Positions 6,653 to 41,704 of a DNA stretch of 64,000 nt are shown here, one piece after another. This DNA comes from an uncultured Planctomycetota bacterium (GTDB lineage Bacteria > Planctomycetota > Planctomycetia > Isosphaerales > Isosphaeraceae). The notes below the pieces were generated by a model. It was not told the DNA's origin, searched no databases, and saw nothing but the letters and a program-made list of their open reading frames with translations. Within the stretch, counting starts at the first letter, position 1. Each line of letters opens with the position of its first letter. Made by a program: the position numbers and the translations under genes. The DNA lies in the NCBI GenBank assembly GCA_963823665.1, contig CAWGMQ010000010.1:2528001-2592000 (forward strand), read 5' to 3'.

Positions 6653-6805
6653 GGGATGTTTGACACCCGCCTCGTGCGGAGCGTCGAAGACTCGCCTTAT
6701 GCGTGTTCGAAATGACCGGAGGGGCCGTGGTGTTGCGGCGAACGTGCGAGCCGCGCATGAATGGATGCGGGGGACCGTCACAAATGGGTGGGGGTCTGGA
6801 AGCCC
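6653..6805 (+). repeat. 153 bp MITE/REPIN-like element, copy A
   Basis: GGGATGTTTGACACCCGCC...GGGTGGGGGTCTGGAAGCCC; colinear with 9667..9819. Confidence 0.85.
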
Positions 6806-6849
6806 TCTGATCGAACGGCGCTTACAAGCCGATCCATCGCGCATGTTCA

Positions 6850-7452
6850 TTAGCGGGCCAAAGCGAAAATCCTCTGCACGAATGCCTTGAGCTCTGGGCA
6901 CGCGCTGATCGAGACGCACAAGTCTTCGCCCTCAAGTATCCGGCCGGCGTCGCGTGCCTTGACATACCTTCGTTTTTTCGAACCCGTCAGAAACACTTCT
7001 TGCAAGATGTACGCAGGTGACTTGTCGTGGTTCACCTTCTCCGGAGACGAACCTGGAGACTTACGGTTGCTTCCGGCTAGCTTGCTGATCTTCTCCCAGT
7101 ACGGCAGCAGCCACGCCTCGAAATCATGCAATGCCACATGGGGATGGAATCGTTTCTCGTCGCCAACCCATTCGCGCATTTTTCGCTTTGCATCTTCCGC
7201 CGTCAGGAATTCGGGCGGCGTGGTTCCGGTGTAAACATCCGTCAGCGCGATCACGGCATCGGCCTTTCGCTTCCGATCATTCAGGAGGTTTGCGACGATT
7301 CGTTTCAGCTTGTCACCAGTCGGGATCCGGCCGTCGTGAGGCACGAAGTCCAGCTTCGGCATCTTACCCGCCAGGTGCTTCCGTAAATACGCGATCAGAT
7401 GCGGCCTGAAGGCCGTTTCGGTTTTTCCTTCGACGAGAATGGCAATTCTCAT
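6850..7452 (-). CDS. DUF4276-like (TOPRIM-type) protein
   Basis: MRIAILVEGKTE...LTDVY...HDFEAWLL...SPEKVN...CPELKAF; ATGA overlap with ATPase gene. Confidence 0.8.
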   Translation of the reverse strand: MRIAILVEGKTETAFRPHLIAYLRKHLAGKMPKLDFVPHDGRIPTGDKLKRIVANLLNDRKRKADAVIALTDVYTGTTPPEFLTAEDAKRKMREWVGDEKRFHPHVALHDFEAWLLPYWEKISKLAGSNRKSPGSSPEKVNHDKSPAYILQEVFLTGSKKRRYVKARDAGRILEGEDLCVSISACPELKAFVQRIFALAR

Positions 7453-8621
7453 GGACGGGCCCCGATACGGCCCATGCGCCACACCTCGTCCAGAGTATAC
7501 TCCGCAAGCCACTGGTCGAGGTCGAGGTCATCAGCCCGCGTGACGGTCGTCGCACCGTCCTCACCGACGTCCATGGCCAGCACCTCCGATGGGTTGAGGA
7601 ATCGGATTAGCCGGTCCGCATGGGTGGCGACGACGAGCTGCGTGCGTCCGGATGCTTCGCGTAATAAGTCTGCCAGCAACGAGAGCAGCTCCGGATGCAA
7701 GCTCACCTCTGGCTCGTCAATCATCGTCATGGCCGTCAGTCCGGGACTTTGCAGCAGCGTCGCCAGCCAGAGAAAGCGCAGCGTGCCTTCAGAAAGTTGA
7801 TGCATGAAGAATGGATTCTTGCTCGTCGTTTCCTTCCAGGTCATCGCCAGCGTGCCCGCGGCCACCGGCGGAAAGTTGAGCCGCTCAAAGCTCGGGAACC
7901 CGGTGCGCAGGGTGGCCTCAATCGTCTCGAATCGATCCGGCTCCGTTTCTTTGATCGTGAACAAGCAGGAAACAAGGTCCTCGCCGTCGTGCCCTGGCAA
8001 TTGCGCGTTTCGCAGCGGTTGGGGCAGCCGGATTGGAGCACGGGGGCCGACGTCCAGGACGTGATAATGGGTCGACGAGGCCAAACACCGGCGAAAGTCC
8101 TCGGGCTCCCGAAACATCTTGGGAACCTGCGACAGGGCTGACTCGGTCGGGTCGTAAGCCCAGTTCGGCCGGACTAACCCCTTCTTTGTTCCGTTGCGCT
8201 CGAAATAGCGGACGTCACCATGCTGAGCCTGGATGTATCTCAGAGGCGGTGGTTTCGCGCCAATTTGCTGAACGAGCGACTCATCTGAAATCTCGTACGC
8301 TGTTCCCTGTGGAGTCATCGCGAGTCGGTACTCAATGGGACGATTGCCCGGCACGCCCATTGTCAGGTCAAACGACATGTCGCGTGCCTTTCCACCCTTC
8401 ACCGCCGCGAGGCTCGCCAGGTTCGCGTCGATGCCGCTCAGTGCACTCATCGCTCCTTTCAGCGTGCCGGATGCGGAGGCTGCCAGGAGCGACAGCACGT
8501 CCAACAAGGATGTCTTTCCACTGCCGTTTGCGCCGATGACGACGTTGAGCGGCTTCAGGATGATGTCGAGGTCGCTCAGGCGACGGAAACCCGCGACGTG
8601 GATCTTCTCAAAGGACTTCAT
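7449..8621 (-). CDS. ABC/AAA_21-type ATPase
   Basis: Walker A GANGSGKT, signature LSEGT, Walker B IDEPEVSLHP, ATH. Confidence 0.92.
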   Translation of the reverse strand: MKSFEKIHVAGFRRLSDLDIILKPLNVVIGANGSGKTSLLDVLSLLAASASGTLKGAMSALSGIDANLASLAAVKGGKARDMSFDLTMGVPGNRPIEYRLAMTPQGTAYEISDESLVQQIGAKPPPLRYIQAQHGDVRYFERNGTKKGLVRPNWAYDPTESALSQVPKMFREPEDFRRCLASSTHYHVLDVGPRAPIRLPQPLRNAQLPGHDGEDLVSCLFTIKETEPDRFETIEATLRTGFPSFERLNFPPVAAGTLAMTWKETTSKNPFFMHQLSEGTLRFLWLATLLQSPGLTAMTMIDEPEVSLHPELLSLLADLLREASGRTQLVVATHADRLIRFLNPSEVLAMDVGEDGATTVTRADDLDLDQWLAEYTLDEVWRMGRIGARP

Positions 8622-8663
8622 GACTGGTTTCCTGTCGAATCGGGCGGATGCGATTTCGCGCGG

Positions 8664-9002
8664 TTACATAAGATTCGAGCGTCGTTCCACCCCGACGGAA
8701 CCTATCACAATCCGCGCAAAATGGTCGGCGGTAGCCCTCGGTTCAAACATGCAACTATAGGCGCACCGGCCCAGAAAGGCATCCTGCAATTCGGGCAAAA
8801 AGTCGGTCCAGTAGCTCGGCGGCCGGAGCGTTCGCCGCTTGGTGTCGGTCAAGTCCCGCCAGTTCGGTCCCTTGCCCTTGATCCAGGCAAGACCCCGTTT
8901 TCGGCATCGCTCGTCGCCGGTGAAGACGTTGGGTCGATTCGAGAGTTCGACTTCGAGTTTTCGCGCCGGCCCGAGGTCTTCCAGGCGGAGGCTCCTCAGC
9001 AT
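8664..9002 (-). pseudogene. Chimeric remnant: ATPase N-terminus joined to HNH nuclease fragment
   Basis: MLRSLRLEDLGPARKLEVELSNRPNVFTGD stops at the Walker A position, then ...FLGRCAYSCMFEPRATADHF. Confidence 0.6.
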
Positions 9003-9165
9003 TTCACGATCCCCTTCCTCCGCAACAGTTTCCCCATCGACGACCACTCGTACTTCCCTTCGACCAACTCTTCCCAGTAGTTCTTGGCTTCTTTCCGGGG
9101 GACGGGCTTGTGGAGCGGCGCGATGTTCAGGACGACGCCGTCGTCGAGATCGGGGTCATATTTTG
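8996..9165 (-). pseudogene. C-terminal fragment of PglX/Eco57I-like methyltransferase
   Basis: YDPDLDDGVVLNIAPLH...YWEELVEGKYEWSSM resembles the C-terminus of BREX/type IIG-like methylases. Confidence 0.6.
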
Positions 9166-9666
9166 CGCTGCTTTCGCTTCCAATCAAGTCTCCCTTGACG
9201 TTTCCATCATTCTACACCGCCTCCGCGCTCGGGAGGAGTTCATGGCCTTTGGCGTACGGGAATCGCCGGCAGTGTAGCGGGTCGCCGGAGACTGGCGCGA
9301 CAAGGCGGGCTCGCCATTGCGGAACCGACGGCCGGTGTGGTCGAGCGTGAGTAGGTAGCTGCCGAGCGAGAAGCCCTCGCGCGTTCGTTCACGTGGTGGA
9401 CCGGACTTGCGTTTGCTTTCGACCGGGCGGATGCGGATTGATTCCGGATGCTGGCGTCGGTGGGCGGCTGCTGGATTGAATCGAAATCTGGGGCTGGGCC
9501 GCGTGGATTGGGGTGAGGAGCGAGGTGAACTACCGTTGCCGTGGCCGGCGCGTATTCAGTTTTGAACATAAGGTAACTGAGATAACGAAGTGGGAGACGA
9601 GAGGCTGACGGGGAGGTAGGGCGGGCCGGAGTTTGGATTGTTTCTGGTCGACCAGGAACGCGATCA

Positions 9667-9819
9667 GGGATGTTAGACACCCGCCTCTTGCGGAGCGTCG
9701 AACACTCGCCTAATGCGTGTTGGAAATGACCGGAGGGACCGTAGTGTTGCGCCGAACGTGCGAGCCGCGCATGAATGGATGCGGGGGACCGTCAGAAATG
9801 GGTGGGTGGCTGGAATCCC
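9667..9819 (+). repeat. 153 bp MITE/REPIN-like element, copy B
   Basis: GGGATGTTAGACACCCGCC...GGGTGGGTGGCTGGAATCCC. Confidence 0.85.
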
Positions 9820-10000
9820 TTGCGCCATCAGGACTTCGCGGCAGCGTCTTTGGGCAGTCCGAATCGCTTCTTGGCCAACGCGATCTCGTCCACGAGCCGA
9901 CAGTGAAAGCGAGCTTCCACGTTGTCAGACTCAATTCGATTGCCATGCAGAGCGCGGGTGCTTGCGGGAAGGTAGACTGAGTTTCGTGGGTCGCTGACAT
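9820..10000 (-). pseudogene. IS110-family transposase N-terminal fragment
   Basis: LCMAIELSLTTWKLAF and, in another frame, DEIALAKKRFGLPKDAAAKS; ends at repeat copy B. Confidence 0.65.
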
Positions 10001-10087
10001 GGGTAAGCTCCTTGAGAACAGGTTTGGAACACCAACCGGAGCTTATCCTCAGCGACTCACGTAAGCCCGCCCTACGGCATGGTATCT

Positions 10088-10524
10088 GAACTCAGTAGAC
10101 CCCACGGGGTCAGTGTACCGCAGCTCATCGCGACTTTGGCGCGATACCTGATCGGCTGGCGAGGCTACTTCGGCTTCTGCCAGACACCGATCGTGCTGCG
10201 GAATCTAGGGCCTGGATTCGTCGCCGATTATGCATGTATATCTGGCGCCAGTGGAAGAAGGGGCCAACACGGCACGCTCGACTGCGCCGGCGAGGTGTAT
10301 CCCACTTTCATGCGGCGGTTGCTACCGGATCCGAATCTGGGTACTGGCGCACGGCTCGCCATGTGACAGTGCAGCGGGCACGATCCAACGCCTTCTTCGA
10401 CTCGGTCGGTCTTCCTCGGCTGGCGGCATCGTCGACCGTCTGACTCGATTGAACCGCCGTGGTACGGACCCGTATGCCCGGTGGTGTGGGCGGAAGGAGC
10501 CGCGAGGCTCCCCCCGATCCCGAT
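10088..10524 (+). mobile_element. 3' fragment of group II intron (IIC-like): maturase C-terminus plus domains V-VI
   Basis: LARYLIGWRGYFG...WRQWK; DV GAACCGCCGTGGTACGGACCCGTATGCCCGGTGGTGT; ends ATCCCGAT. Confidence 0.85.
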
Positions 10525-10861
10525 CAATCCCGCCATATTGTGAATACTCGGTGTCTCTGCCCCGCGTCAAAATATGATGAACAACGAGAGGAGCTCAAAC
10601 GTAGCGCACGCGAGGCAAAAAATGCCGACGAGATCAAAATACTTAGACGAGGCCCTTTTCTGTAAAAAATAGAATGCAGCGAAATAAATTATAGATATAT
10701 TCATTAATTCCACGCAGCGCAGAACGAGCGCGGTCGTGCTGTGCGCACGCACGAAATCGCGGTCGAATGCGAGCCCGCGCAAACAGGCGTTAGCGATCAC
10801 CAAAGTGCAAGCGCCGGCCGCCGCGACCTTGCGCATTTCAGTACCTCCGGGGCTTTCTTTG

Positions 10862-13800
10862 TCAATCGAGTGGATATTCGCCTAGTAGTTCGTCCAGTTG
10901 CCCGGCGCATATGTTTTGGGCCCCATGAGCGCAGTCCTCTCGTTCCTGCGGCTGCACAATCGAGCCTCCGCAGTAGTGATGCGCTAACTCATGTAGAAGC
11001 AATTCGGCCAGCTTCCGCGGAGAATAGAAGCAGGCGTGTGGACATACGACGATTACGTTGGTACTCGCGATCGTGAACATCGGCGCAAACAGGCAGATCT
11101 CGCATGCGAGTACGCCACCGATCAGCGATATACCGAAGGTTGTCGTACCCGAAGGAGCTCTCTCGATTGGCGAGCGCGGTGTGTCAAGTTTCTCGGCGTG
11201 TTCTTCGAACCACGCTTTGCATCTTCCGGATCGAACCACTTCGTTTACCGCGGCAATCGCCTTTCCCAATCCAGGGCAAAACAGCGCGAGCGAATCCGTC
11301 CGAATCAACCTAGGTGGCGAAAATGCCGGCTTGTTCTTTAGGACATCCGGACCGGCCGGGTAGTTTGCCGCGTATCGGTAGTCGCTAGCGAGTCGCGTCC
11401 TGCGCACGAAGTTGCTGCTCAGAAATCTCCCCGTCACCGGGTCGTAGACTGTCGCGCGGGCGTGATACTTGGCGAGATCCGGGTCGTAGAGGTATCCGGA
11501 CCGGCCAATGTAGCGAAACCAGTTAACGCTTGCACCGGTAGTCGAGAGCTCGTTCCCGAATGCGTCGTAGATGTAGGTGTCCGATTCGACACCCGCGTTG
11601 TCAGACAACAGCCTCGTCGAGCCCAGCACGTCGAACGAGTAAAACAGTTCCGCACCGCCGCGCGCCTGCGAGATTAACTTCCCATACTGTGCTGGCTCAA
11701 GTGAGTTTACAGCTTGTATGATGCCGCTGGCATTCGTCTCCAGCAGTACGCATTGCCCATCCCAGATATTCTTCGCCGTTCCCGTCGAATCTTGCTTCGC
11801 GATTCGCCGACCATCGGCGCTGTACGTGAATGTATTCACGATTCCTGACGACAATACCGCATTCGCCAGTCGGTTTTCGCCGTCCCAAGTGTTCGTAGTA
11901 AGCTGGTTGCCTGGCGCGAGCGTGGTCAGCAGATTTCCGTCGCCGTCGAACGTATAGGTGGTGACGCCGGCGCCCGTCTGGCTGGTGGTGAGCTCGTCCG
12001 CCGCGTTGTATGCGTAGGTCGTCGCTGCGCCGCTATTTACCATTAGCGTTCGATTGCCTACACCATCGTAAACGTAGGTGATGTTGTACGCTGTAGCCCC
12101 GCTGCGTTTTTCGTTGGTTAGTTGATATGTCGGGTCGTAACTCCAGGTCACGACCGATCCATCCGCCTCGATCACCTGTGTGCGGTTGTTAACCGCGTTG
12201 TAGCTGTAGGCGAAGCTCGAGAGTGTTGAGCCGCCCGGGCCAAGGTTTGCGAGGATCAGTTGGCGGTCGGCGTTGTCGTACACATTTGAGATGACGAACA
12301 CCATTGGCGAGCGCCTGGCGCGTGACGCGGCTCGCCACGTCGTAAGACCAACTCGTCACCTGCGCTTCGGGATTTGTCAACGTGCTGATTCGCCCGACCG
12401 CGTCGTACGCATACGTGAAGGTTCCGGTGGGCTGTTTCAACGTAGCGCGTTGGCCGACCGCGTCGTACGCGTAGGTCAGCACGATCCCTGCTGGATTCAC
12501 CACTGAACTCAACCTTCCTACTGGGTCAAAAGTCGAGGTGTAGCTTCCCGTCCAATCGCTCAGAACCGTACGACGGCTATTCGCATCATATGAGAGTGTA
12601 GAGCGTGTCGCGTCCTGGTATTGCTGACCTAAGAGTCGGCTCGCTGCATCGTACGTGTAGCTCGTGCGCAGGCTGCGGCCGTCGATGCGAAGCACTCGCC
12701 TGCTCGCGGCATCATATTGATAGGTGACTTGGTTGCCAAGTGCGTCGGTGGTGCCGGTCTGTCTGCCGGAGACGTCCCATGCAAAACTTGTGCGGTTTCC
12801 TCTGGCGTCGATGATGGCGATCCGTTGGCCGACGGCGTCATAGACCTGAGTCGTGGCGAACCCGTTAGCGTTCACGGTGGCCAGCATTCTGCCGTCCGAA
12901 TCGTAGATTGTCGTTGTGGCATTCCCGAGCGCGTCGGTTATCGACACCTGCTGGCTAGAGGCGTCGTACGAATATGAGCTTCGATTTCCGAGCGGGTCGA
13001 CCGTCGCGATCAGTCTGCCGGCGGCGTCAAACACGCTGGTGACCGCGTTGCCGAGGGGATTGATCCTGGCCACGGTCCTGCTTGCGGCATCAAAAACTGT
13101 TGTGGTTGTATTGCCCAGAGCGTCAATGGAGGCGACTGGCCTGTTAGCTGCGTCATATACCGTCGACGAGACGAAGCCCAGTGCGTTCGTCGCGGATACT
13201 GGCCGGCTTGCCGCGTCGAACCCCATCGTCGTCCGGTTGCCGAGGGCATCGACAGTCGCGATCACCCTGCTCGCGCTGTCGTAGACGATCGAGCTCCGGT
13301 TTCCGAGGGCGTCGATCCGAGCGATCGGCCGACTGGCATTGTCATAGACAGTTGTAAATACGTTCCCAAGTGGATCAATGCTCGCTACCGGGCGGTTTCC
13401 GGCGTCGTACGCGGCGGTCGAGCGATTCCCCAGCGGATCTATTGACGCAATTGACCTGCTTCCAGTGTCGAATACCGTACTGCTGGTGTTCCCCAACGGA
13501 TCGATGAAGGCCACGGACCTGTTGGCGGCGTCGAACACTCTTGTGAAGACGAAGCCGAGTGCGGTTGTGCTGGTGACGGGCCTGCTCGCGGCATCATAGC
13601 CCGTGGTCGAGCGGTTGCCGAGCGGGTCAATCCCCGCGATTGGGCGCGAGGCGTTGTCGAATACAGTTGTTGATACGTTCCCGAGTGGATCGGTCCGGCT
13701 GGTCGGCCTGCTGGCCTGGTCGTAACCGATGCTGCTCCGATTTCCGAGTGGATCGACCGCTGCAATGAGCCGATTGGTGGCATCGAAGACGTTAGTGCTC

Positions 13801-16800
13801 GTGAAGCCCAATGGATTGGTCGAGCTCACGAGCCTGTTCGCCGCGTCATATCCCATCGAGGAACGATTGCCCAGCGGATCAACGGTGGCGACCAATCGAT
13901 TCCCATTGTCGAATACGCTGGACCAGATGTTGCCCACTGGATCGGTCCGACTAACGCGCCGGCTACCACCATCGTACCCGTACGAGGTCGTGCTACCGAC
14001 GGAGTTGATCGTCGCCAGGACTCGGCCGGCTTGGTCGTAGACCGCGGAGTCTCACATTGCCCAGCGGGTCCGTGTAGTTGACCGGCCGATTTGCTGCGTC
14101 AAACCCTATGGACGAAGTGTTGCCCAGCGGGTCGACCGATGTGCTTGGCCGGCCACCGCCGTCATACGTCGTGCTCCAGACGGCCCCGAGCGGATTTGTG
14201 AAGGCGATGGGATTGCCTGCATTATCATAACTATATGAGCTTGTGTTGCCCAGCGGATCGGTCGAGGCCGTCTTCCTTTGCAACGAGTCAAAGCTCGTGG
14301 TCCACACGTTCCCCAGCGGGTTTGTGGTCGCGATGGGCAGGTTTGCGGCGTTATACGTGAAGGTGTTTCGATTCAACAGCGGGTCAACCGAGGCGATCCG
14401 GCGGTATTGGGCGTCATAGACGCCCGTGGTCCGGTTGCCGAGCGGGTCCACCTGGGCCGTCATGTTGTTGGCCGCATCCCAAACATACGATGTCGTGTTG
14501 CCCAGGCCGTCGACGCGGGCAATGAGTTTGCTCATCCCGTCGTAGACAGCGGTGCCTATGGCTCCCAGCGGGTTGGTCGTGCTGATCAAGTTGCCGACTG
14601 CGTCATATGCATAACTCGTGGTGTTGCCGAGCGGATTTGTTTGGGCGATCAGCCTGCCACTTAAGTCGTAGCTCATGGACCAGATCGTGCCCAGCGGGGT
14701 CGTCACTGAGATCAATCGACTGTTGGCATCATATTGATAAGTCGTGTTGTTTCCGACTGGATCGATAAAATTGGTCAGCCGGTTGACCTGGTCGCTCAGA
14801 TAGGTCGCGACGGCGCCGAGCGGGTTCTGCACGGTCTGCAAGATGCCATTTGAGTTGTAGGTGTAACTCATGCGGTTGCCGAGTGAATTCACCAGGGCGA
14901 TTTGCCGGCCGAACGAGTCATAAACGAGCGTGACCAGTTGCCCGAGCGGGTTCTGCACCGATTGCAGTTGGCCCATGCTGGTGTAGGTGTACGACGTCGC
15001 GTTGCCCTGCGCGTCGATCGCGGCGCTGCGCTGGCCGGAGGCGTTCCACGTCAGCGTTGCCGTCGCGCCGAGCTGATCGGTGATCGAAGTGACCTGGCGC
15101 TCGAGTTAAAGTTGTACGTGAAGATGCCGCCCAGGGGCTGGGTGATGGAGTTGAGGTAACTCACCATGTTCGTCGCGTTCTGAAGGTAGCTGAACGTCGT
15201 CGTGTTTCCCAGGCCGTCGCCGATAGCGAGCAGATGGCCGGTACCGTCCCAGGAGTAACTCGTGATATTCCCGACGGCGTCGGTTGCGCCCAGCAAGGTT
15301 CCATTCGTGTCAAAACCGAGCGTTGCCACGTTCCCCAGCGGGTTCGTGACCGCCGAGAACGTCGTCCCCGGGATACGGGGTCGAAATCGCCCGCCGGTTA
15401 CAACACCGTTAACCAGCGTTGTCACGGCTCCGAGCGGCGAGGTGATCACCAGCCCCGATGCGTACGAGAAGCTCGTCCTGTCCCCGAGCGGGTTGATCCA
15501 GGAGGTCATCTGGTGGCTGCCGTTGTAGACCGCGCTGGTGATGCAGAGCTCCGGGCTGATCACCTGTGCGAGATCTCCTGAGCCGTTCACGGTCAATGTC
15601 GTGAGCCGCCCGAACGGGTCTTGAATGCTGATGATCTTGCCCGACGTCGCGTCGTAAGCGAACGTCGTGCGGCGGCCGGGTGGATCGGTCACGAAGCTGA
15701 CACGATTGCTGCCGTCGTAGGTGACGGTCCAGCGAGCGCCTGCGGGATTCTGGATGTACTGCAAGGACAGGACACCGCCCGACAGCGAGCCGTATTGAAA
15801 GATCGTGCCATCGGGCTGCGTCTCGGTGGCGGTGCTCGCGTTCATGGGAGCTTGCAGCGAGTTCGCTGTGCTGGCTGATGGCGAGCTGAAGCCTCCGAGC
15901 TGAGCGCGATTGTAAGGGAACGACTGGCCGGCGCCGGTGACGACGGTCAGCGTATGTGACGCCACCTGGACCTGGCGTTTGAATGTATGGAACTAGCCGG
16001 TGCCCAGCTCGTTCGAGGTCGCGATGTTCGTGCTGGAGTATGACAGCACCGGCGCAACGTAGAAGAGATCGCCCGCCGGAGGCGCGATCTGCATGGCCAC
16101 GCTGGGATTGGCGGGGTTGATCACACACTGCCCGCCTAGCGAGTTGCAGCCGCCGGCGGCGAACGTGAGCGGCGGAAGGGCACCGCTGCGGGCGATGCTG
16201 GGCATGTGGGCTGCACGCTGGAGCGCAGCCTGGCCGCCGCCGCCTGGTGTGAGCACGATCGGTGGCGCGCCACGTGCTCCATAGCCACCGCCGCGTCGGG
16301 CCATCGGGGCTCCGCCGTTCGGACCGCCGGGCGCGGCGCCGGTACCGTTACCGCCACCTGGGGGCACACATTGCCCGGGCTTCTCGCAAGGCCCGGTGCT
16401 TCCGGGGCCGCCGGGCGTTTGAATCGGGCTGGAGCTGACCGGGCCGGGGCCGCCTATCGGGCCGATCGGGCCGTTGGCTGGCGAGAGGATGATGCCACCG
16501 AATCGGCCGCCCGCTCCGCCGCCGCCGCCCTTGAGCGTCCAGATCGGCCCGCTGCCACTGCCCCCTCCGACGGGCGACGCGCCGTTGCCGCCAGCCCCGC
16601 CGCCGCCACCGCCGCAACCGCAGCCGGCACCCCCGCCATGGTACACCGGCCCGGGCAAAGGGGTCGGCCCGAGTGGAACATTGCCCGGCGTCAACTGGAT
16701 TGTGCCGCTGGGTGGAGGAGATAGCCCGCCGCCGCCAGGCGTGCCTCCGCCCTTCAAGATCGGGCCCGGGCTGAGCGTCAACCCATTGCCGCCGCCGCCC

Positions 16801-27771: not shown

Positions 27772-27900
27772 GCGCCCTCCGGAGTTCCCCGCTTCGCTCC
27801 CCGGATCGTAACAAGAATCCGTAGCAAAGCTATCAGTAGCAAGAATCCATCGGAACGAACTTGATGTAAAGCCAAGCATATTAATCAGTTAGAGATACTC

Positions 27901-27941
27901 GGAGAGGTGACAGAGTGGTCGATTGTGCGGCACTGGAAATG
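27901..27941 (+). tRNA. 5' half of tRNA-Ser(GGA), truncated after the anticodon loop; att site 1
   Basis: GGAGAGGTGACAGAGTGGTCGATTGTGCGGCACTGGAAATG; no variable arm or T arm follows. Confidence 0.85.
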
Positions 27942-28002
27942 ACGTTCAACGGGTGCCTATTGCCCTAAGTTGTTTGGAGACGAGTGGATAGGAAGATCGC
28001 CC

Positions 28003-28365
28003 ATGGTCAGCAAGGACCGTGAACAGACGCGGACAGAGGCCGCCCAGGCGACGCGACGGCAGAAGTCACGTGAGCTTGATGAGGAACACGAGCAGATCCT
28101 CAAGAAGGCGCAGATTTACTTGCTGTTCGAGGCGAAGCGCCCGATGTTCTGGAACGTCGCCGATATCCGAGAGGGGAAGGGCGAGGGTGGCTCACGCCGC
28201 TGGATCATTGCCGTGCATCTCCGTGCTCCGTCTGGGCATGAGGGATATCTGGGCGACCTCCTGTACGATGGCGAGCGGTTCTCGGAGTTGACGGACGTCG
28301 AATTGATGCGGCGGCGAGTGCAGCAGATCACGGCTGACCCCGGAAGTCCGTTGCCGATCGCATGA
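28003..28365 (+). CDS. Hypothetical protein, partner of C39-like peptidase (copy 1)
   Basis: 120 aa from MVSKDRE; ATGA overlap with next gene. Confidence 0.7.
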   Translation: MVSKDREQTRTEAAQATRRQKSRELDEEHEQILKKAQIYLLFEAKRPMFWNVADIREGKGEGGSRRWIIAVHLRAPSGHEGYLGDLLYDGERFSELTDVELMRRRVQQITADPGSPLPIA

Positions 28366-28859
28366 GTACCGGACTTCCGCACTACCGCCAGGAGAAGAAG
28401 AATACCTGCGCCCTGGCGTGCCTGCGGATGGTCCTTGCTTCCTTCGGCACGGACGTCGAGGAGGGCACGCTCGAGGCCCGGGCGCACATGGAGATCGACG
28501 GTACAGAGATCGGCGAACTTGAGCGTCTTGCGCGGCAGTTCGGGGTCGTCGCAGACATCCAGGAGGCGACAGTGGCGCAGCTTCGGCACCTGCTGGAGGA
28601 CGGGAAGCTGCCTATCGTCTACATCGACCGTGCTATCTTTTAATTGCGTCCCCGCCAACGGGCGCAGCACTCCATTCGCGACACCATCATCCACACCGTC
28701 ATCCCCACGCGGGTCATTACCAGTTTTGTCACATACCATGACCCTCGCCAAGTTCGGGTCATCCGGAAGACCACTGGCCTCTTCCGTCAGGCATACGAAG
28801 CCCTGGGAGGGCGCTGCGTCGTCTGCTCCAAACCTGCGAGAGGCCTAGACCATGGCTAG
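28362..28859 (+). pseudogene. C39-like cysteine peptidase with in-frame TAA (copy 1)
   Basis: QEKKNTCALACLRMVL...DRAIF*LRP...IIHTVI...YHDP; Cys before the stop, His/Asp after. Confidence 0.75.
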
Positions 28860-28874
28860 CCGTGAGTCTCCCGC

Positions 28875-28957
28875 CGACTGCAAGTGCCTGACGCTCGGCA
28901 AAAGGTGGGTGTCTCACATCCCTGACGCTCGGCAAAAGGTGGGTGTCTCACATCCCC
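28875..28957 (-). repeat. Left half of repeat element, end duplicated in tandem
   Basis: (CTGACGCTCGGCAAAAGGTGGGTGTCTCACATCC)x2. Confidence 0.85.
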
Positions 28958-29905: not shown

Positions 29906-30189
29906 TCGCTTGAGCCTTTCTCCGGCTGCTGAATTCCACAGGCATTGCCTCCTAGAGCCGCAATGGTGCGATGATCCCGCTCACCGCCTTTTTGAAATCC
30001 ACCACGATAGCCGCCAGCCGATTCATGTCCCAACCGAAAAGCTGTGTCAAGTGCCGCACCGACACCGTGAATTTCTCGGCAACCTGGCTGTAGAGGACGA
30101 ACATCTGCTCAAACGACATACGCTTGGTCACGGCGACCTCGTTGCCTACTGCACCCGGATGATCGACGCGGCGGCTGTCGTCACGCTTA

Positions 30190-30469: not shown

Positions 30470-30521
30470 ATGGACACGCGACCAGTAACAGCTCGCTCCC
30501 ATGCAGCCATTTGGGGATGAT

Positions 30522-31454: not shown

Positions 31455-31485
31455 TACAATGCGTGTATTGTGATAGAGTGCTATA

Positions 31486-32292: not shown

Positions 32293-32355
32293 TAAGCCAC
32301 ATAGCTATCTGAGTCGATCGGCATGGATGTAGCTACTGCGTACGGTTGAGTCGGC

Positions 32356-32709
32356 ATGACGGCGGTCTCGAAGTCTTCGAGCAGCGCCAACCGAGCCGGA
32401 GGCGAGTTCGAGCCCATTGCCGAAGCGATGCAGATTTCAATCGACGACCTAACACCTAGGAGCACGCGCATGGCCAGAAAACTCGAAGTCGAGTTGACGA
32501 ACGCTGGGTGCAGCTTGGACCCGAAGAGGTTCATCGAGCTTCTCGAAGAACGGCACGCATCCATGCACCCTGGCTGGACCGTTGACGACCTTGTTTGTCA
32601 CCCTGATGAAGCGAAGGCGTATTGCGAGCGGGTTCGGTCCGAGGTTGGAGCACCGGTGCCGGATCACGTCATCCTTCGGCGACTAATGAACGCCCGCAAG
32701 GCACACTAG
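32356..32709 (+). CDS. Hypothetical protein sharing a ~45 aa helical unit with 33590..34531
   Basis: HPGWTVDDLVCHPDEAKAYC...RRLMNARK. Confidence 0.7.
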   Translation: MTAVSKSSSSANRAGGEFEPIAEAMQISIDDLTPRSTRMARKLEVELTNAGCSLDPKRFIELLEERHASMHPGWTVDDLVCHPDEAKAYCERVRSEVGAPVPDHVILRRLMNARKAH

Positions 32710-33560: not shown

Positions 33561-33589
33561 GCTTGGCACCTTGAGCGTGTATGGGCGTC

Positions 33590-34531: not shown

Positions 34532-34532
34532 G

Positions 34533-34979
34533 TCAGTCGTAGTTCGAGATAAAGTGAATGGCGTTATTAAAGACGACCGCTACAGCACCTTGCTTCGTTT
34601 TTTTTCCCATTCGTTTCAGGAAGTTCGCCAACTCGCCTATCTTCACCGGATCTTCAACGTCTTCTCGCTTGGCAAGACTTTGGATCATGATTGGCTTGTC
34701 AGTCAGCAGTTGGCCATCGTTCTCGTCATCACGCCAGATACCACATAATTCGGTAAAGCCGGTCGCCCCACCATACAGCTTTCCCATTAAGTCGAGGGCT
34801 TGCGAGGCCCATTCAGCCTGATCCTTGAGTTTCGACTTGTCGCGTGCGTGACTCGGTATAAACACAATAACACAATCGTCCGCAAGACCAAATCGAAGGC
34901 GGCCCGTGAGCCACTGAGGGAATGAAGAATCAGCAGGTGCGTCCTTGGCCTTCGCTTTCGACACTAGCTTGTCCCTCAT
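34533..34979 (-). CDS. Hypothetical protein, possibly PII/DUF3574-like fold
   Basis: YGGATGF..GIWRDD...KQGAVAV; first gene of the methylase operon. Confidence 0.6.
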   Translation of the reverse strand: MRDKLVSKAKAKDAPADSSFPQWLTGRLRFGLADDCVIVFIPSHARDKSKLKDQAEWASQALDLMGKLYGGATGFTELCGIWRDDENDGQLLTDKPIMIQSLAKREDVEDPVKIGELANFLKRMGKKTKQGAVAVVFNNAIHFISNYD

Positions 34980-35288
34980 CGGATTATGCGAGCTACCAAA
35001 ACATCCGGCATAGCACACACGCCCCCGTCGAAGACGAGGGCGCGGCCATTGAGTTGATTCAAACGCGCAAGCGTGCGGGCGGCAAGGGGTTGGTAGGTAA
35101 TGACGGGCTTGCCAGGCCAAACTTCTTGAAGGTGGCCTAGTAGCAAATCTGCCGCACAGCCGGTATTCTAGATTTCCTATTGACCGCCCCAGATCGTATC
35201 AATGAATCGTATCAAGGGCGTTTGTATCAGAATTGGTGGGAAAAACGCTTGACTTAAACCTCTTAATGCCAACGAGTTAGAATCAATT

Positions 35289-35329
35289 GGAGAGGTGACA
35301 GAGTGGTCGATTGTGCGGCACTGGAAATG
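35289..35329 (+). tRNA. 5' half of tRNA-Ser(GGA); att site 2
   Basis: Identical to 27901..27941 with a different upstream flank. Confidence 0.85.
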
Positions 35330-35390
35330 ACGTTCAACGGGTGCCTATTGCCCTAAGTTGTTTGGAGACGAGTGGATAGGAAGATCGCCC

Positions 35391-35753
35391 ATGGTCAGCA
35401 AGGACCGTGAACAGACGCGGACAGAGGCCGCCCAGGCGACGCGACGGCAGAAGTCACGTGAGCTTGATGAGGAACACGAGCAGATCCTCAAGAAGGCGCA
35501 GATTTACTTGCTGTTCGAGGCGAAGCGCCCGATGTTCTGGAACGTCGCCGATATCCGAGAGGGGAAGGGCGAGGGTGGCTCACGCCGCTGGATCATTGCC
35601 GTGCATCTCCGTGCTCCGTCTGGGCATGAGGGATATCTGGGCGACCTCCTGTACGATGGCGAGCGGTTCTCGGAGTTGACGGACGTCGAATTGATGCGGC
35701 GGCGAGTGCAGCAGATCACGGCTGACCCCGGAAGTCCGTTGCCGATCGCATGA
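35391..35753 (+). CDS. Hypothetical protein (copy 2)
   Basis: Identical translation to 28003..28365. Confidence 0.7.
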   Translation: MVSKDREQTRTEAAQATRRQKSRELDEEHEQILKKAQIYLLFEAKRPMFWNVADIREGKGEGGSRRWIIAVHLRAPSGHEGYLGDLLYDGERFSELTDVELMRRRVQQITADPGSPLPIA

Positions 35754-36247
35754 GTACCGGACTTCCGCACTACCGCCAGGAGAAGAAGAATACCTGCGCC
35801 CTGGCGTGCCTGCGGATGGTCCTTGCTTCCTTCGGCACGGACGTCGAGGAGGGCACGCTCGAGGCCCGGGCGCACATGGAGATCGACGGTACAGAGATCG
35901 GCGAACTTGAGCGTCTTGCGCGGCAGTTCGGGGTCGTCGCAGACATCCAGGAGGCGACAGTGGCGCAGCTTCGGCACCTGCTGGAGGACGGGAAGCTGCC
36001 TATCGTCTACATCGACCGTGCTATCTTTTAATTGCGTCCCCGCCAACGGGCGCAGCACTCCATTCGCGACACCATCATCCACACCGTCATCCCCACGCGG
36101 GTCATTACCAGTTTTGTCACATACCATGACCCTCGCCAAGTTCGGGTCATCCGGAAGACCACTGGCCTCTTCCGTCAGGCATACGAAGCCCTGGGAGGGC
36201 GCTGCGTCGTCTGCTCCAAACCTGCGAGAGGCCTAGACCATGGCTAG
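35750..36247 (+). pseudogene. C39-like peptidase with in-frame TAA (copy 2)
   Basis: Identical to copy 1 including the stop. Confidence 0.75.
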
Positions 36248-36262
36248 CCGTGAGTCTCCCGC

Positions 36263-36367
36263 CGACTGCAAGTGCCTGACGCTCGGCAAAAGGTGGGTGT
36301 CTCACATCCCTGACGCTCGGCAAAAGGTGGGTGTCTCACATCCCAAAGGTGGGTGTCTCACATCCCC
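36263..36367 (-). repeat. Left half of repeat element with three nested end copies
   Basis: AAAGGTGGGTGTCTCACATCCC three times. Confidence 0.85.
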
Positions 36368-36566
36368 CCGGGTTTCGGGTAGGCGGGAAGACGATCGCCG
36401 CCGCCGCTTTCTCGGATCACTGCGTTTTCTGCCGTTGCGTCCACCGCCAGGCAGCGACCGCCGCAAGTTGCACGGCGCAGAAGTGTGGAGTCGCCCCGAT
36501 CCCCGTATGTTGCTGAGACTGCGGAGTCCGACTGTCCCGAGATCAGTGGATTTATCCTGCTCGAGT

Positions 36567-36980
36567 TCATTTGGCAGTCAGGTGCCAGTTTTCCAGGTTC
36601 AAGTCCGGCACCCGGCTGAACTCTGCGGTATTGGCGGTGACGAGTATAAGACTGGCAGAGCGGGCATGACCGGCCAAGAGCACGTCGTACGCACCGATCA
36701 TACAGCCCTGGGACTCCAAAAGAGCGCGAATGCGCGCGGCTTCCCTCGCGGCCTCTCCGTCAAAAACGAGCTCGCTAATCGTGGCCAGCAGCAGATCAAC
36801 CTTGGCCAGCTCCTTCGCCGGGTCGTCGCACTTTTCGACCCCAGTGAATAGCTCGTAACTTGTAATGCTGGAAATCGCGCAGTCTGCCGGCGGGACCGCA
36901 GCCATGTGTTGCAGCACCAGGGTGTGATGTCGCATCGCGGCAATGCATGTGTTCGTGTCGAGCAGATAGCGTATTGGCAA
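36567..36980 (-). CDS. vapC: VapC-family PIN-domain toxin
   Basis: YLLDTNTCI, IGAYDVLLAGHA, LVTANTAEFSRV. Confidence 0.95.
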   Translation of the reverse strand: MPIRYLLDTNTCIAAMRHHTLVLQHMAAVPPADCAISSITSYELFTGVEKCDDPAKELAKVDLLLATISELVFDGEAAREAARIRALLESQGCMIGAYDVLLAGHARSASLILVTANTAEFSRVPDLNLENWHLTAK

Positions 36981-36983
36981 CGA

Positions 36984-37217
36984 TCACCCCAGGATCGGAG
37001 CCGGCGGAACTCGCCCTTGGGTTGGACGCGCGAAGGCCGGATCGTCGATGCGAATGCGATCAAAGAACCCGAGCGGCCATGTCGCGGGCTTGATCGGTTG
37101 CAGGACAAGAGACTCACCCTGCCGTCGAATGGAGACGGTGTCTCCTTCCAGGTGAAACCCCTCCGGCAATTTCACGAGCTGGCAGCCGTCAATCCGTACT
37201 ATTTCAGCGACTTTCAT
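36984..37217 (-). CDS. vapB: VapB (AbrB/SpoVT-type) antitoxin
   Basis: QLVKLPEGFHLEGDTVSIRRQGESLVLQP. Confidence 0.9.
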   Translation of the reverse strand: MKVAEIVRIDGCQLVKLPEGFHLEGDTVSIRRQGESLVLQPIKPATWPLGFFDRIRIDDPAFARPTQGRVPPAPILG

Positions 37218-38212
37218 CGCGTTGCCCCTTCTCATACGAAAAGCGTCGCGCATGTCCAATCATAGCAAAGCTAGCGTCCTTCCTCAAATGAGTGGACGAG
37301 GCGAGCCGGTGGATGTGTATCGGAAGGCGAAAGGCTGGTTTTGAGAAACGGGCGCCGGAAACAGGGCCGTAGCTTGTTTTCACCCGGGACAAGACGTTGG
37401 TAGTTCCTGGCAGACGCGCCTGAAACCGCCAGGCGCCTGGTTTCATCTCGCAGGCTTGGTATCAGGGAAGGGCGGATCGGTGTCTCAGAAGAAAAACAAT
37501 TGGATACGACCATCTGTCATGCCGCGGACCGTGACCTCGTGGTCTCGGTATTCGCAGAGCAGCTTGTCACCGATCCTGCATTTTGGGGGCAGGTACGGGC
37601 CGTAAAGGAGCTTGAATCGTTCGGAGTCGATCATGGCTGTGATCCCGGATTGGGAGATGGGGGACCATGATTTCGGCAGCTTACCAGCGGACGGGATGGG
37701 GGACAATGGGGTGGTAAGGTGGAGGTTTTTTGGGGCGGGTCGGTATGGCGATTGATCGGTGTTGGATTCCCGTCATGTCACCCGTATCGATTTGACCGGC
37801 GGGGCCGCCTCTGAATCACCGATGGCGCGGCTCACGGCTGTGTGTGTGGACTGGCGTGTCGATTCGTTGGGCGTGACCTGGCGCCGGAGGCTTCGGTAGC
37901 GCAATCGACTGGCCAGTGAATCCCGGTACTCGCAGCGCGCTAACCCATCTCGGGGCAGTTGGCGGAGTGCGCTGAGGGTGCGTTGATTGGGCTTGGAATC
38001 GAGCCTTTCTCCGCATGGTGCGCCGAAATGGGCGACTCGGTTCCGGTCAGCTCTTCTCCGCTGGAGAACGACCCGCCCCAACTGAGTTGCATGTCGTGTC
38101 GCCGGAAGCTGTCGCCGGGACCTGGGCGTCCCAACTGGCATCGTGTTGTCTCGGTCCAACAAATTCATTCTCGGCCTGGAAACCGAACTAGAATCGGGAT
38201 GGGGAGGTTGCC

Positions 38213-38830
38213 ATGAGTGCTCGTCGCTCTGAACTATTGCCGAGATTCTGCAGTCGACGCCGTTCGGGGATGAACCTCTCATACGCTGAAGTCAACGGAA
38301 TCTATGCGATCGTCGAGGCCAACGCGAATAAAGCCAGAAAAACCAAGATATCAAAGCGGCTTGCGATTTCAGATCAGACGATCGCAACCCGATTGACAAG
38401 TCAACGGAACGGCAAGAAGAAGAAGAAGAAGAAGAATAGGAGGAAGAAGAATCGCTCTGATCGAATGAAACTCGCTGAGGCGAGGTTCGTAGTCCGCCTC
38501 GAAGAAGCGGAAGCGGTCGAAGACCGCGGAGACTACGGCAAGGCCGAGTTTCTCTACAATGAACTAATTTGCTTGTGCAAACGCGACTTTCGCATTGGCC
38601 GACACGAATTGGCGTTTCTATACCATGACTTGGCTCGCTTGCATCTTTGCCGGGATAGGTTGGAACTGGCGAAAATTCTATTCGAGAAATCGCTCGAGGT
38701 ATTCGTCAGGACGGTGGGTGTTGAGCATCGCTACACGCGCACCGTGAGAGCGGATCTTGCCGCCTTGGCTAGCGGAAGGGATTGCGGGGCTTCCGCCCGG
38801 AAAGGCACCAATTCCGTACGCGCCTACTAA
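38213..38830 (+). CDS. TPR-containing protein with poly-Lys tract (start uncertain)
   Basis: GDYGKAEFLY...LAFLYHDLARLH...VGVEHRYT. Confidence 0.6.
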   Translation: MSARRSELLPRFCSRRRSGMNLSYAEVNGIYAIVEANANKARKTKISKRLAISDQTIATRLTSQRNGKKKKKKKNRRKKNRSDRMKLAEARFVVRLEEAEAVEDRGDYGKAEFLYNELICLCKRDFRIGRHELAFLYHDLARLHLCRDRLELAKILFEKSLEVFVRTVGVEHRYTRTVRADLAALASGRDCGASARKGTNSVRAY

Positions 38831-39040
38831 CTCGGAGGGTATCATGTTGCGGCGAGAACGCTGACTACATGAGTTGGGGCGCTCATCTGTCCGAGGGAGC
38901 GGTTGCGATGTGGTGGACACCGAGTGGTGAACGAGCGCTGCTTGGCGCGGAGTGGGACTTTTTCCGTGAAGGGCTTCATCACTGTTGGGAGTGGGTCGAG
39001 CAATCGATGAATGATCCTGATCTGTTCCAAACCGGGGTCA

Positions 39041-39995
39041 GGTATGTTGCCGGGTCGCCCTGGCGGATCGCTCCGCCAGGGCTCCCACTGATCCGGACGT
39101 GCCCAATTAAGGCATCCGGCTCGTCATGTCGCGGCGTCGCTGTCCCTCACACGATCTGGTCGCCTCGCGGTGACGCGCTCTGAGGTCCAATGCCCTCGGC
39201 GTGGTTCCGGCTTCCAGTCCGCGACACGGTACCCCCTTCGCTCCACAGGGTCTGGGAGGGCCCATTCCCCCGCTTCACTGCTACTACGGAGCACTCCGAC
39301 TCCCGTCCGCCCATTTCGCCGCACTTCGTTGCCTTCGTTTGGCGATACCACCCTTGCGTCTTGTTCGCTCCCAGCGACCCGACGCGGGGTCGTGGGCCGG
39401 GGAGTTGGTATTCCGGTTCCCGAGCCGGAAATGTCAGTGGAGACGGATGGGGCTCTCAGGTTCCCGAGCAACCCTCGCGTCCCTGCGCCATGTTCTTGGA
39501 CCCCGGCAGGACCGAACACGCCAGGCCATTGCGGCGTGTCGACACGGCCCCCGCTTGTGTCTACAACGGAGGCTCCCACGATGAGTATTTCGGGGCTCGA
39601 TAGCATGGCATGGAGACTCGCTGTCTACGCTTCGCAGTGAGGGTCACCCCTCCCCACGCAAGACTTGCTTCCGGCTGCCGGCCAGGCTCTGCCGGGCGGG
39701 ATTCGTTAACCCGCAGGGTCGCGATGAAAGGTTTCTGTGTTTCGAGGCACTTCCTCCTTTCTCGAGCTTTTCCTGACGCAAAGACACCCACCTTCTGCGC
39801 AGCGTCTGACACGCGCTTTCTTCTTGTCGAAATGACGGGCGGCCGTGCCGTGGTTCTTCGCCGAACGTGTGGGCCGCGAACGCATGGATGCGGAGGGCGT
39901 GACAAGAAGGGTGGGTGTCTGGGTTCCTGGATGCGGAGGGCGTGACAAGAAGGGTGGGTGTCTGGGTTCCCGAAGGGTGGGTGTCTGGGTTCCCC
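39041..39995 (+). repeat. Repeat element copy C, split by the intron, right end triplicated
   Basis: GGTATGTT|intron|AGACACCCACC...GAAGGGTGGGTGTCTGGGTTCC x3. Confidence 0.85.
39049..39781 (-). ncRNA. Complete ORF-less group II intron (IIB-like), about 733 nt
   Basis: 5' TTGCG; EBS1 AGACAC in stem-loop (plus strand 39557-39562); DV GAGCCGGATGCCTTAATTGGGCACGTCCGGATC; DVI ending CGACCCGGC; no RT ORF. Confidence 0.9.
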
Positions 39996-40184
39996 TGGGA
40001 GGGCGCTGCGTCGTCTGCTCCAAACCTGCGAGAGGCCTAGACCATGGCTAGCCGTGAGTCTCCCGCCGACTGCAAGTGCCTGACGCTCGGCAAAAGGTGG
40101 GTGTCTCACATCCCTTATAACAGAATGTAGCATTTTCCGGTATTCTGTGATATCGTTGAGCGGAACCGAAAGGAGGGTGCCGGC

Positions 40185-40469
40185 ATGAACGTTTCACTGA
40201 CCAAAGAGTTTGAGAGCTACGTCACGGAGAAGGTTGAGAGCGGCTTGTACCAGTCCGCCAGCGAGGTCATCCGCGATGGGCTCAGGCTGATGAGGGAACG
40301 GGATGAGTTGCACCAAAGCAGGGTGGCCGAGCTTCGCCGAGACATCGCCATAGGCATTGACCAAGCCGAACGTGGGCAGGTGCAGCCTTTCAACGAGGAA
40401 GTCACAGCCCGCGTCAAGGCACGCGGGCGGAAACGCCTGGCGGCCAAAGACAGATCGGACTCGGTATGA
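40185..40469 (+). CDS. parD: ParD-family antitoxin
   Basis: MNVSLTKEFE...VESGLYQSASEVIRDGLRL. Confidence 0.93.
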   Translation: MNVSLTKEFESYVTEKVESGLYQSASEVIRDGLRLMRERDELHQSRVAELRRDIAIGIDQAERGQVQPFNEEVTARVKARGRKRLAAKDRSDSV

Positions 40470-40756
40470 ATGAGCCGAGGCTCACCGAGCAAGCGGAGGC
40501 CGACCTAGACGAGCTATGGGAATACATCGCGGCGGATAACCCAGACGCCGCCGACCGCATGGTTGATGCCGTTCTGGAGAGCCGCATGCATGTTCGCTTC
40601 CCTGGCATGGGCCAAAACCGCGACGATCTCCGAGTGGGCCTGCGCTGCTTCGTCGTGTCGCCGTACGTAGTGTATTATCGGCCGATCGAGGACACGATCG
40701 AGGTGCTGAGGATTTTGCACGGAGCACGCGATATTAAAAATATCAGCATAGAATGA
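40466..40756 (+). CDS. parE: ParE/RelE-family toxin
   Basis: QAEADLDELWEYIAADNPDAA...EVLRILHGARDI. Confidence 0.92.
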   Translation: MNEPRLTEQAEADLDELWEYIAADNPDAADRMVDAVLESRMHVRFPGMGQNRDDLRVGLRCFVVSPYVVYYRPIEDTIEVLRILHGARDIKNISIE

Positions 40757-40861
40757 CTTCGCAGTTCTTTCTGAGAGGCCGAGCGAGGCGGGTGCCGGGA
40801 CGAGGCGGAGACCGGGACGCGATCAGTGAATGCAAAACTGTCCGCGTCCCGGTTTCACTTC

Positions 40862-41373
40862 CCCAGGCGACGCGACGGCAGAAGTCACGTGAGCTTGATG
40901 AGGAACACGAGCAGATCCTCAAGAATGCGCAGATTTACTTGCTGTTCGAGGCGAAGCGCCCGATGTTCTGGAACGTCGCCGATATCCGAGAGGGGAAGGG
41001 CGAGGGTGGCTCACGCCGCTGGATCATTGCCGTGCATCTCCGTGCTCCGTCTGGGCATGAGGGATATCTGGGCGACCTCCTGTACGACGGTGAGCGGTTC
41101 ACGGAGTTGACGGACGTCGAATTGATGCGGCGGCGAGTGCAGCGGATCACGGCTGACTCCGGAAGTCCGTTGCCGATCGCATGAGTACCGGACTTCCGCA
41201 CTACCGCCAGGAGAAGAAGAATACCTGCGCCCTGGCGTGCCTGCGGATGGTCCTTGCTTCCTTCGGCACGGACGTCGAGGAGGGCACGCTCGAGGCGCGG
41301 GCGCACATGGAGATCGACGGTACAGAGATCGGCGAACTTGAGCGTCTTGCGCGACAGTTCGGGGTCGTCGCAG
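40862..41373 (+). pseudogene. Third, slightly diverged partial copy of the hypothetical + C39 gene pair
   Basis: Matches about 28043..28554 with a few substitutions; cut by repeat copy D. Confidence 0.85.
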
Positions 41374-41704
41374 GATGTAAGACACCCACCTTTTGCCAAG
41401 CAACGGGTACTTGCCGTCGGCGCGTTTGAAATGACCAGAGGCCGTGGTTTTGCGCTGAACGTGCGAGGGGGAATGAATGGGTGCGGAGAACCATGACAGA
41501 AGCATGGGTGTCTGGAATCTGGGTGTCTGGGTGTCTGGGTGTCTGGAATCCTGTGGAATCCTGTGGAATCCTGGGTGTCTGGTATCCCCTGAACATGCGA
41601 GGGGAAATGAATGGGTGCGGAGAACCATGACAGAAGCATGGGTGTCTGGAATCTGTGTGGAATCCTGTGGAATCCTGGGTGTCTGGTATCCCTCTGGTAT
41701 CCCT
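41372..41704 (+). repeat. Repeat element copy D with heavily stuttered right end
   Basis: GGATGTAAGACACCCACC...; arrays of TGGGTGTC and TGTGGAATCC plus an internal re-duplication. Confidence 0.88.

Follow-up and report, generated by a model that had tools for sequence, protein, structure and literature searches.

This analysis concerned a 153-bp repeat family in a 64,000-nt stretch of DNA (the window, G000:C10:2528001-2592000) from G000, a planctomycete assembly of 16.5 Mb in 12 contigs. The nearest named relatives of its proteins belong to the Planctomycetota, several of them to the Isosphaeraceae. A first-pass annotation had listed four full copies and three left halves of the repeat, all of which were confirmed, and had proposed a non-autonomous element driven by an enzyme encoded outside the window; a candidate gene for this enzyme, of the HUH type, was located elsewhere in the genome. 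The repeat is probably non-autonomous, two ends that face outward and depend in trans on this HUH (Y1) nuclease of subclass 2.3. The copies in the window are given below together with their stutters, that is, units in which an end re-copies its own tip.

6653..6805, + strand: 153-bp element, full copy 1
9667..9819, + strand: full copy 2, 92% identical to copy 1
28872..28922, - strand: left 50 bp of the element, terminus pointing right
28923..28956, - strand: 34-bp stutter unit behind the left half at 28.9 kb
36260..36366, - strand: left half (36260-36310) with stutter units of 34 bp and 22 bp
39041..39927, + strand: copy 3, the outer 8 nt of its left end (39041-39048) split from the remainder (39782-39927) by an intron
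39049..39781, - strand: group II intron of 733 nt without an open reading frame (ORF), directly after the core GGGTGTCT; Rfam RF02005 (domains I-IV), 138 bits, cut-off 49
39928..39994, + strand: 43-bp and 23-bp stutter units at the right end of copy 3
40064-40114, - strand: left half of the element
41372..41521, + strand: copy 4, about 75% identical to copies 1 and 2
41522..41703, + strand: nested stutter array at the right end of copy 4, of 8-11 bp units and one 114-bp unit

The copies starting at 39041 and 41372 share 73-75% identity with copies 1 and 2. Copy 3, which had been taken as a full copy, is a normal one, except that its 887-bp span is interrupted by the 733-nt intron. The stutter units reported earlier were found again: those at 36.3 kb measure 34 and 22 bp, those at 39.9 kb 43 and 23 bp, those at 41.5-41.7 kb 8-11 bp and 114 bp, and the 34-bp unit at 28.9 kb had been missed. 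This 34-bp stutter is common to two dispersed 1070-bp duplicates (copies A and B, described below), while the 22-bp unit is present in copy B and not in copy A, which indicates that a stutter grows stepwise.

The repeat had at least 41 matches in the genome (40 of 70 candidates were scored), clustered and mostly co-oriented inside clusters; G000 and G001 were the two of 41 related genomes that contain it. Aligning 58 copies gave a length of 151-153 bp and imperfect terminal inverted repeats of 24-25 bp. These had been described as subterminal, which is true of the conserved core, stopping about 8 nt inside the junction, but the inverted repeats themselves extend to the termini. An end consists of the core TGGRTGTCT and about 8 nt beyond it. 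The genome-wide motif search that had been recommended returned 171 matches to TGGRTGTCTGNNWHYY against none with the reversed control, so several sister families have the motif in common, and these counts, with the 41 matches to the repeat, argue that it is not a chance resemblance. Across 151 genomes, TGGRTGTCTG was most frequent in G000 (246 against 12 in the control) and next in G142 (101 against 3), both of which carry a HUH gene of the candidate type; the count is informative for these two outliers only, since many genomes without a listed gene match give 30-45 matches. A 165-bp sister family (L049:10136-10300, L048:10133-10297) has the same cores and holds an internal core followed by the first 8 nt of the intron found in copy 3 (intron 1). 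An integron attC array was considered and rejected: GTTAGAC occurs in one copy, but the consensus is GTCAGAC, the order is reversed relative to attC, and the cargo genes are not co-oriented (no search was aimed at an integrase).

Base conservation past the core reaches +8 and, weakly, +9, and junctions cluster 7-9 nt beyond the core. At 121 of 301 termini (83/232 and 38/69) there follows a re-copy of the terminus's own tip. Stutters were parsed at the 171 innermost termini only, because nested arrays give ambiguous templates; 48 of these stutter, with units of 7-103 nt, and among 43 assignable first units 23 measure 7-11 nt and the others 14-103 nt. With the cut set at +8, microhomology of 0, 1, 2 and 3 nt was seen in 15, 16, 11 and 1 of the 48 cases, and 5 of 48 require extra bases. 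No target-site duplication (TSD) stood above a shuffled null among 33 full copies, in agreement with the earlier impression, and the search of G001 for an empty allele encountered no synteny across window positions 1-12000.

Clustering of the ORFs adjoining the ends yielded a seven-member family without a Pfam match, a recurring unannotated ORF that specifies a protein of 410 aa (examples at G000:C8:1396528-1397781 and C3:449022-450272). Matches to this gene numbered 68 in G000 and 66 in G001, mostly fragments or copies with internal deletions, and three copies in G000 are near full length and free of stops. The protein carries the motifs NHLH, RFWAGRF and YVDLNP (NHxH and RFWEGRF in the alignment consensus), and residues H77, H79, Y190, D192, L193 and N194 are invariant, or almost so, in 117 sequences. 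Its structural model (predicted local distance difference test, pLDDT, 85.7) had one PDB match at E<=0.001, E. coli TnpA-REP (4er8; Foldseek E 2.1e-4, 197 columns), followed by IS200/IS605 TnpAs, and Atlas placed it in transposase clusters at 0.96; a sequence search of solved structures returned nothing relevant. A GTAG-type transposase associated with repetitive extragenic palindromes (REP; RAYT), one of the enzymes suggested earlier, did not fit: the 58-copy alignment has no GTAG foot, the 11 PF01797 matches found in each of G000 and G001 have different inverted repeats of their own, and none of those listed owns the ends described here. The 410-aa gene was itself missed by PF01797, and its protein scored 33.7 bits against NCBIfam REP_Tyr_transpos, below the cut-off of 80. 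It does possess the traits of TnpA-Y1 subclass 2.3, namely YVDLNP, an NHYH-like HuH motif with a W motif, and a HUH/Y1 core that carries insertions and is followed by a long C-terminal tail, and judged by this motif signature it is a probable member of that subclass. HUH chemistry is supported as the best lead by way of this subclass, and a subclass-2.3 gene outside the window is the probable driver of the repeat. The subclass comprised 5,431 cluster representatives at E<=1e-10, a number in which other Y1 subclasses may be included.

The HUH gene is the only protein family that recurs between the ends, and 27 of 30 loci picked by protein score have at least one outward end (read by eye, one mismatch allowed). 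These ends typically lie 170-230 bp upstream and 245-330 bp downstream of the gene and are often stacked, with 14 units at L112 in G001; repeat and gene ends also share a left/right flavour, xxCATCCC on the left and GGxxTCCC on the right. For genes of at least 60% identity, outward against inward motifs numbered 17/24 against 1/24 upstream and 37/44 against 2/44 downstream, counts that are inflated by the part of this locus set that had been fetched by motif, so the 30 loci picked by protein score are the cleaner test. The corresponding figures for genes below 60% identity were 17/51 against 2/51 and 12/28 against 1/28, with controls for the outward motif at 0/16 and 2/16 (other Y1 genes) and 3/116 (shuffled windows). 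Among other planctomycetes, and also in a single Ahniellaceae record, genes of 45-70% identity are flanked by the same core (L138 has about 20 units), and outward TGGGTGTC was present in five of eight gammaproteobacterial records (8 of 13 matches were fetched), as were tandem re-copied ends in five of the eight (L235, L237, L238, L239, L240). Gene-flanking inverted repeats were seen in G000, G001 and other genomes. Genome G138 holds 13 gene copies (at least 98.9% identical within a family), with the upstream motif on the same strand in 13/13 and inverted in 1/13. In three of six copies of one G138 family (L230, L231, L232), a near-perfect palindrome made of two termini joined at their heads lies downstream of the gene.

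Host DNA has been joined to the ends at several places in the window:

27887..28956, + strand: 1070-bp unit, copy A, host cargo (a 131-aa ORF and an ORF resembling C39 peptidases by Pfam) ending at an element terminus
35275..36344, + strand: 1070-bp unit, copy B, 99.5% identical to 27887-28956 and with the same 34-bp stutter
28554..28562 (also 35942-35950), - strand: cryptic TGGATGTCT core inside a cargo gene, the homologous site being joined to the left terminus of copy 4
39993..40114, + strand: 123-bp piece of the 1070-bp unit (3' end and element half) behind the right terminus of copy 3, 100% identical to 28801-28923
40862..41373, + strand: 512-bp piece of the 1070-bp unit, broken off within the peptidase-like gene and fused to the left terminus of copy 4, 98.4% identical to 28043-28554

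For 53 of 227 outer termini, the flank is found a second time without that end; many of these are self-duplications, and the host cases involve one flank only and varied dinucleotides. Loci L028 and L067 have the element and 1.3 kb of left flank in common at 91%, and their right flanks differ. The cargo of the arrays consists of toxin-antitoxin pairs, extracytoplasmic function (ECF) sigma factors, kinases and similar accessory genes, and no transposase was found inside the arrays. Ends behave singly, in that they are joined to host DNA one at a time, take neighbouring DNA along and land behind existing ends, and the duplicated segments of 99-100% identity suggest that the element is active. 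On the far side of the 512-bp captured piece lies an inverted pair of GGGACGCG (40806-40847), which resembles the repeat upstream of the TIRYT genes L037 and L079.

The 5' end of the intron in copy 3 occurs 21 times in G000 and not at all in G001. Of the 21 copies, 20 stand right after TGGRTGTCT and one after TGGGTGTCC; they occupy both left and right ends, in several families, and 13 are ORF-less forms of 732-733 nt, all 13 with the boundaries TTGCG...CCCGGC, so that the transcript limits, UUGCG...GGC, depart from the canonical GUGYG...AY. A candidate exon-binding site (EBS1), a single AGACAC near nt 220 at a hairpin tip, can pair with GTGTCT of the 5' exon. Longer forms encode a reverse transcriptase (RT), and some hold a second, nested intron; two RT genes and at least two intron families are located at these ends in G000, and no HNH domain was found in the 434-aa RT. 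In two or three independent events (the L006/L049 family, L058, and L008 compared with L121) the spacer has been replaced by intron-derived sequence, TTGCGTCA, with the junction still 7-8 nt past the core. Where only the first 7-8 intron bases persist before foreign sequence, the junction position appears to be measured from the core, and the core is the likely homing site of a group II intron lineage. A 4.46-kb twintron (L042:11710-16167, also L049, L052, L061 and L046, copies 99% identical) consists of intron 1 with an intron encoding RT-maturase-HNH (627 aa) inside it. A further family of group II introns shares about 72% identity with intron 1; in four of eight listed matches (L022, L047, L048, L106) it is inserted behind CAGACA, on the other strand of these same ends.

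The shared end motif, the junction position, the stutters, the lack of TSDs, the one-sided joins and the HUH/Y1 residues and fold were established by the analysis. HUH enzymes yield a 5'-phosphotyrosine and a 3'-OH (PMC3333891; Corneloup et al. 2021, PMC8266576). In the mechanism envisaged here, the protein would bind TGGRTGTCY and nick one strand about 8 nt outside it. The route that we prefer, at somewhat short of an even chance, is a nick on the strand reading GGGATG into the element, followed by displacement synthesis primed from the flank and premature rejoining. The enzyme would stay on the 5' end of the element while the 3'-OH of the flank primes displacement synthesis, and early rejoining of the enzyme-held end to the nascent 3'-OH would leave one partial copy of the tip, mostly of 7-11 nt, which is how far off the bound core lies. 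If it took place in trans, or if synthesis ran on further, this reaction would put a copy of the end and its inner cargo at a fresh site or behind a different end. With the enzyme kept on the 5' end and synthesis primed by the flank, the continuous unit lengths, the peak at 7-11 nt and the junctions without microhomology would be explained. A wider generalisation is offered only tentatively: subclass-2.3 HUH genes may define an undescribed class of bacterial transposons in which each end is an autonomous nicking site. In this view a hairpin-free linear core of 8-9 nt would fix the position of the cut, about 8 nt off, for any spacer sequence; a single end would duplicate itself together with neighbouring host DNA through nick-primed synthesis followed by rejoining; landing would favour ends that are already in place; gene-less doublets like the 153-bp family would be spread in trans and assemble clusters of accessory genes; and group II introns would have evolved to home on the invariant core.

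Several results, beside the inflated counts mentioned above, weigh against this picture. Most homologues of less than 45% identity lack the strict motif, and the gene copies of G138 bear variant motifs on the same strand on both sides. A direct parent of the 153-bp family was not recovered by nhmmer on 27 gene-bearing loci, the interior having no homology except to one whole neighbouring copy, so the link between gene and repeat rests on the 9-nt core and the spacer; a metagenome pattern scan for the family's left subterminal motif also gave no match. One intron start is cut at +20 rather than +8 (L052). A clean empty site, with both flanks contiguous, was found for none of the 33 full copies, a weak test confined to the fetched loci. 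Binding, nicking, the choice of strand and the part played by synthesis are inferred from sequence.

The same enzyme could also act more like a RAYT, cutting the TGGGTGTCT strand at the terminus and a second, loosely C|T-like site on the sister or a distant single strand, with the terminal 3'-OH joined to the enzyme-bound 5' end, so that stutters and captures would be strand transfers without primed synthesis. This is closest to the first-pass annotation, which had read most junctions as CC|T, and we consider it rather unlikely. The CC|T pattern is a real bias, T following the terminal C run at 8 of 11 scorable termini in the window and, elsewhere, at 60% of termini (142 of 235), the background after any CC run being 23%, and a second, loosely C|T cut would account for it. 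Template starts fall at C|T in 8 of 43 cases, with 5.7% available, the 41372 junction is a C|T within the cryptic core of a host gene, and E. coli TnpA-REP requires C|T alone and recombines in vitro (PMC3333891). The bias is nevertheless a relaxed preference and not a rule: outside the core, at a fixed +8 cut, just 2 of 17 assignable starts are C|T, the 43 starts show 11 different dinucleotides, and host junctions with an end-free second copy, read by eye, include CC|C, C|A, A|C, G|C and T|T; moreover, the commonest units would require cuts within the recognition core. Microhomology of 1-2 nt was commoner than the null (27/48 against about 22%), and together with the T bias this counts against primed synthesis, as both fit a second, sequence-biased cleavage or slippage equally well. 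The sequences fit the two routes alike and cannot separate them.

Explanations that dispense with the HUH enzyme appear much weaker. An ordinary MITE (a miniature transposable element with inverted repeats) of a DDE transposase, or a derivative of IS110/IS1111, with tips expanded by replication slippage, would suit the imperfect terminal inverted repeats of 24-25 bp and the length of about 150 bp, and DDE and IS110 genes are present in the genome, but this is very unlikely given that the 33 copies lack TSDs and that units of up to 114 bp all stop at one terminus, unlike simple slippage. The link to IS110/IS1111 drawn earlier was not borne out, none of nine PF01548 loci being bordered by these ends, and the HUH gene was the sole recurring protein family between them (no genome-wide search was aimed at DDE families). 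That the stutters were made by the intron reverse transcriptases, through template jumping or repair of the homing site, with the HUH gene merely sharing the ends, agrees with the presence of the RT genes and intron families at the ends and with the non-templated bases at 5 of 48 junctions. It is nonetheless highly improbable, as the stutter junctions are 7-9 nt away from the intron site, and G001 has the 14 stacked ends at L112 with no match to the start of intron 1, while stutters also flank the gene in gammaproteobacteria and G138 (no search for other RTs was made there). It is extremely doubtful that the stutters arose as errors of sequencing or assembly in a metagenome-assembled genome. 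Mapping of reads over them had been advised; with low-share runs set aside, no listed contig of four public runs, all short, spans a stutter, which again speaks against the preferred reading, although one contig of run X2 spans the terminus-flank junction at 39993. However, the 34-bp unit occurs in two dispersed copies with the 22-bp unit added to one, stuttered units differ by point changes, and the same polarity recurs in assemblies made independently, among them a one-contig genome and complete records of gammaproteobacteria in culture.

Other features of the window include a second repeat of about 153 bp with imperfect inverted ends (782-945), unrelated to the first and with many copies of 85-95% identity in G001, and an RHS/YD-repeat gene split across at least four reading frames (10862-16128). 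The region 19353-46381 is island-like, with a DDE transposase, a ParA-like ATPase, an RPA replication initiator, an integrase fragment, an adenine methylase, three PIN genes, ParDE, MNT-HepT and a type III restriction gene.

A search of the literature on YVDLNP, subclass 2.3 and TIRYT returned two classification papers and no description of the end, with supplements and subscription journals outside its scope. Quentin et al. 2018 (PMC6006769) catalogued subclass 2.3 with no REP-like structure beside its genes, and neither ends nor derivatives nor a mechanism are named in the accessible text. The 410-aa family resembles the subclass in YVDLNP, the NHxH form of the HUH motif, the W before GRF, the long protein with core insertions and C-terminal tail, and several copies per genome; what differs here is the conserved TGGRTGTCY end, the gene-less doublets, the deleted copies and the stutters. 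TIRtrons, or TIRYT, which are subclass 2.1 (Di Nocera et al. 2013, PMC3733652), likewise comprise a Y1 gene with flanking inverted repeats, which are also scattered as dimers and clusters, but they have a GGGGWSAS motif instead of TGGRTGTCY, and a helix-turn-helix (HTH) tail; Pfam found no HTH in the 410-aa protein at E<=5, and just 47 of its residues align with a local TIRYT, although the ends may overlap with one of the TIR families of that paper. TIRYT genes are present in G000 too, one with a stuttered end: at L033:1800-2250 (G000:C10 near 2124600) the upstream repeat GGGGACAGGTCCC is stuttered, about 200 bp of the 5' end of the gene is duplicated, and a 2.3 element abuts the 3' end. At L036:1340-1480 (G000:C8 near 1768800) the right terminus of a copy of the 153-bp family cuts a TIRYT gene short, the head-to-head GTGTCAGGAACC doublet at window 4757-4811 is the repeat flanking the TIRYT gene at L032, and long tandem arrays of 75-bp and ~36-bp units adjoin other Y1 genes at L031:1-1450 and L081.

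The E. coli REPtron (PMC3333891, PMC8266576) has in common with the present system the HUH/Y1 fold (4er8), site doublets on opposite strands, a relaxed C|T-like bias and a proposed nick-primed amplification, and a model of nick-primed extension and rejoining was put forward for bacterial interspersed mosaic elements, BIMEs (Ton-Hoang et al. 2012, PMC3333891). For introns that target such ends, the literature search gave RmInt2 and attC precedents only. RmInt2 homes into the inverted repeats of ISRm17 (PMC4615759), likewise both inverted ends of a mobile element, and the 434-aa RT, in which no HNH domain was found, is a further likeness, whereas here the target is the core of a HUH element's end and 13 of 21 copies are ORF-less forms of 732-733 nt, a type described as rare in bacteria (PMC4424553).

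The repeat is a real non-autonomous family, probably of a HUH subclass that has been catalogued but not studied; its end is apparently undescribed, and it has an intron dedicated to it. For subclass 2.3, which is large, no DNA substrate appears in the literature found, and the core, the +8 junction and the intron-replaced spacers supply a candidate substrate and a predicted cut site; the contribution of this locus lies in the gene-less family, the cargo capture and the intron homing. If the preferred reading is true, it would account for junction-rich plasticity regions without TSDs and for an intron that parasitises the ends of an element. One-ended rolling-circle transposition in IS91/ISCR elements has one fixed and one variable end, captures adjacent DNA and leaves no TSD. 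The present system differs in its small Y1 enzyme, one or two active ends, short stutters and the lack of a fixed tetranucleotide target, and would represent a mode of HUH transposition between REP/RAYT and IS91.

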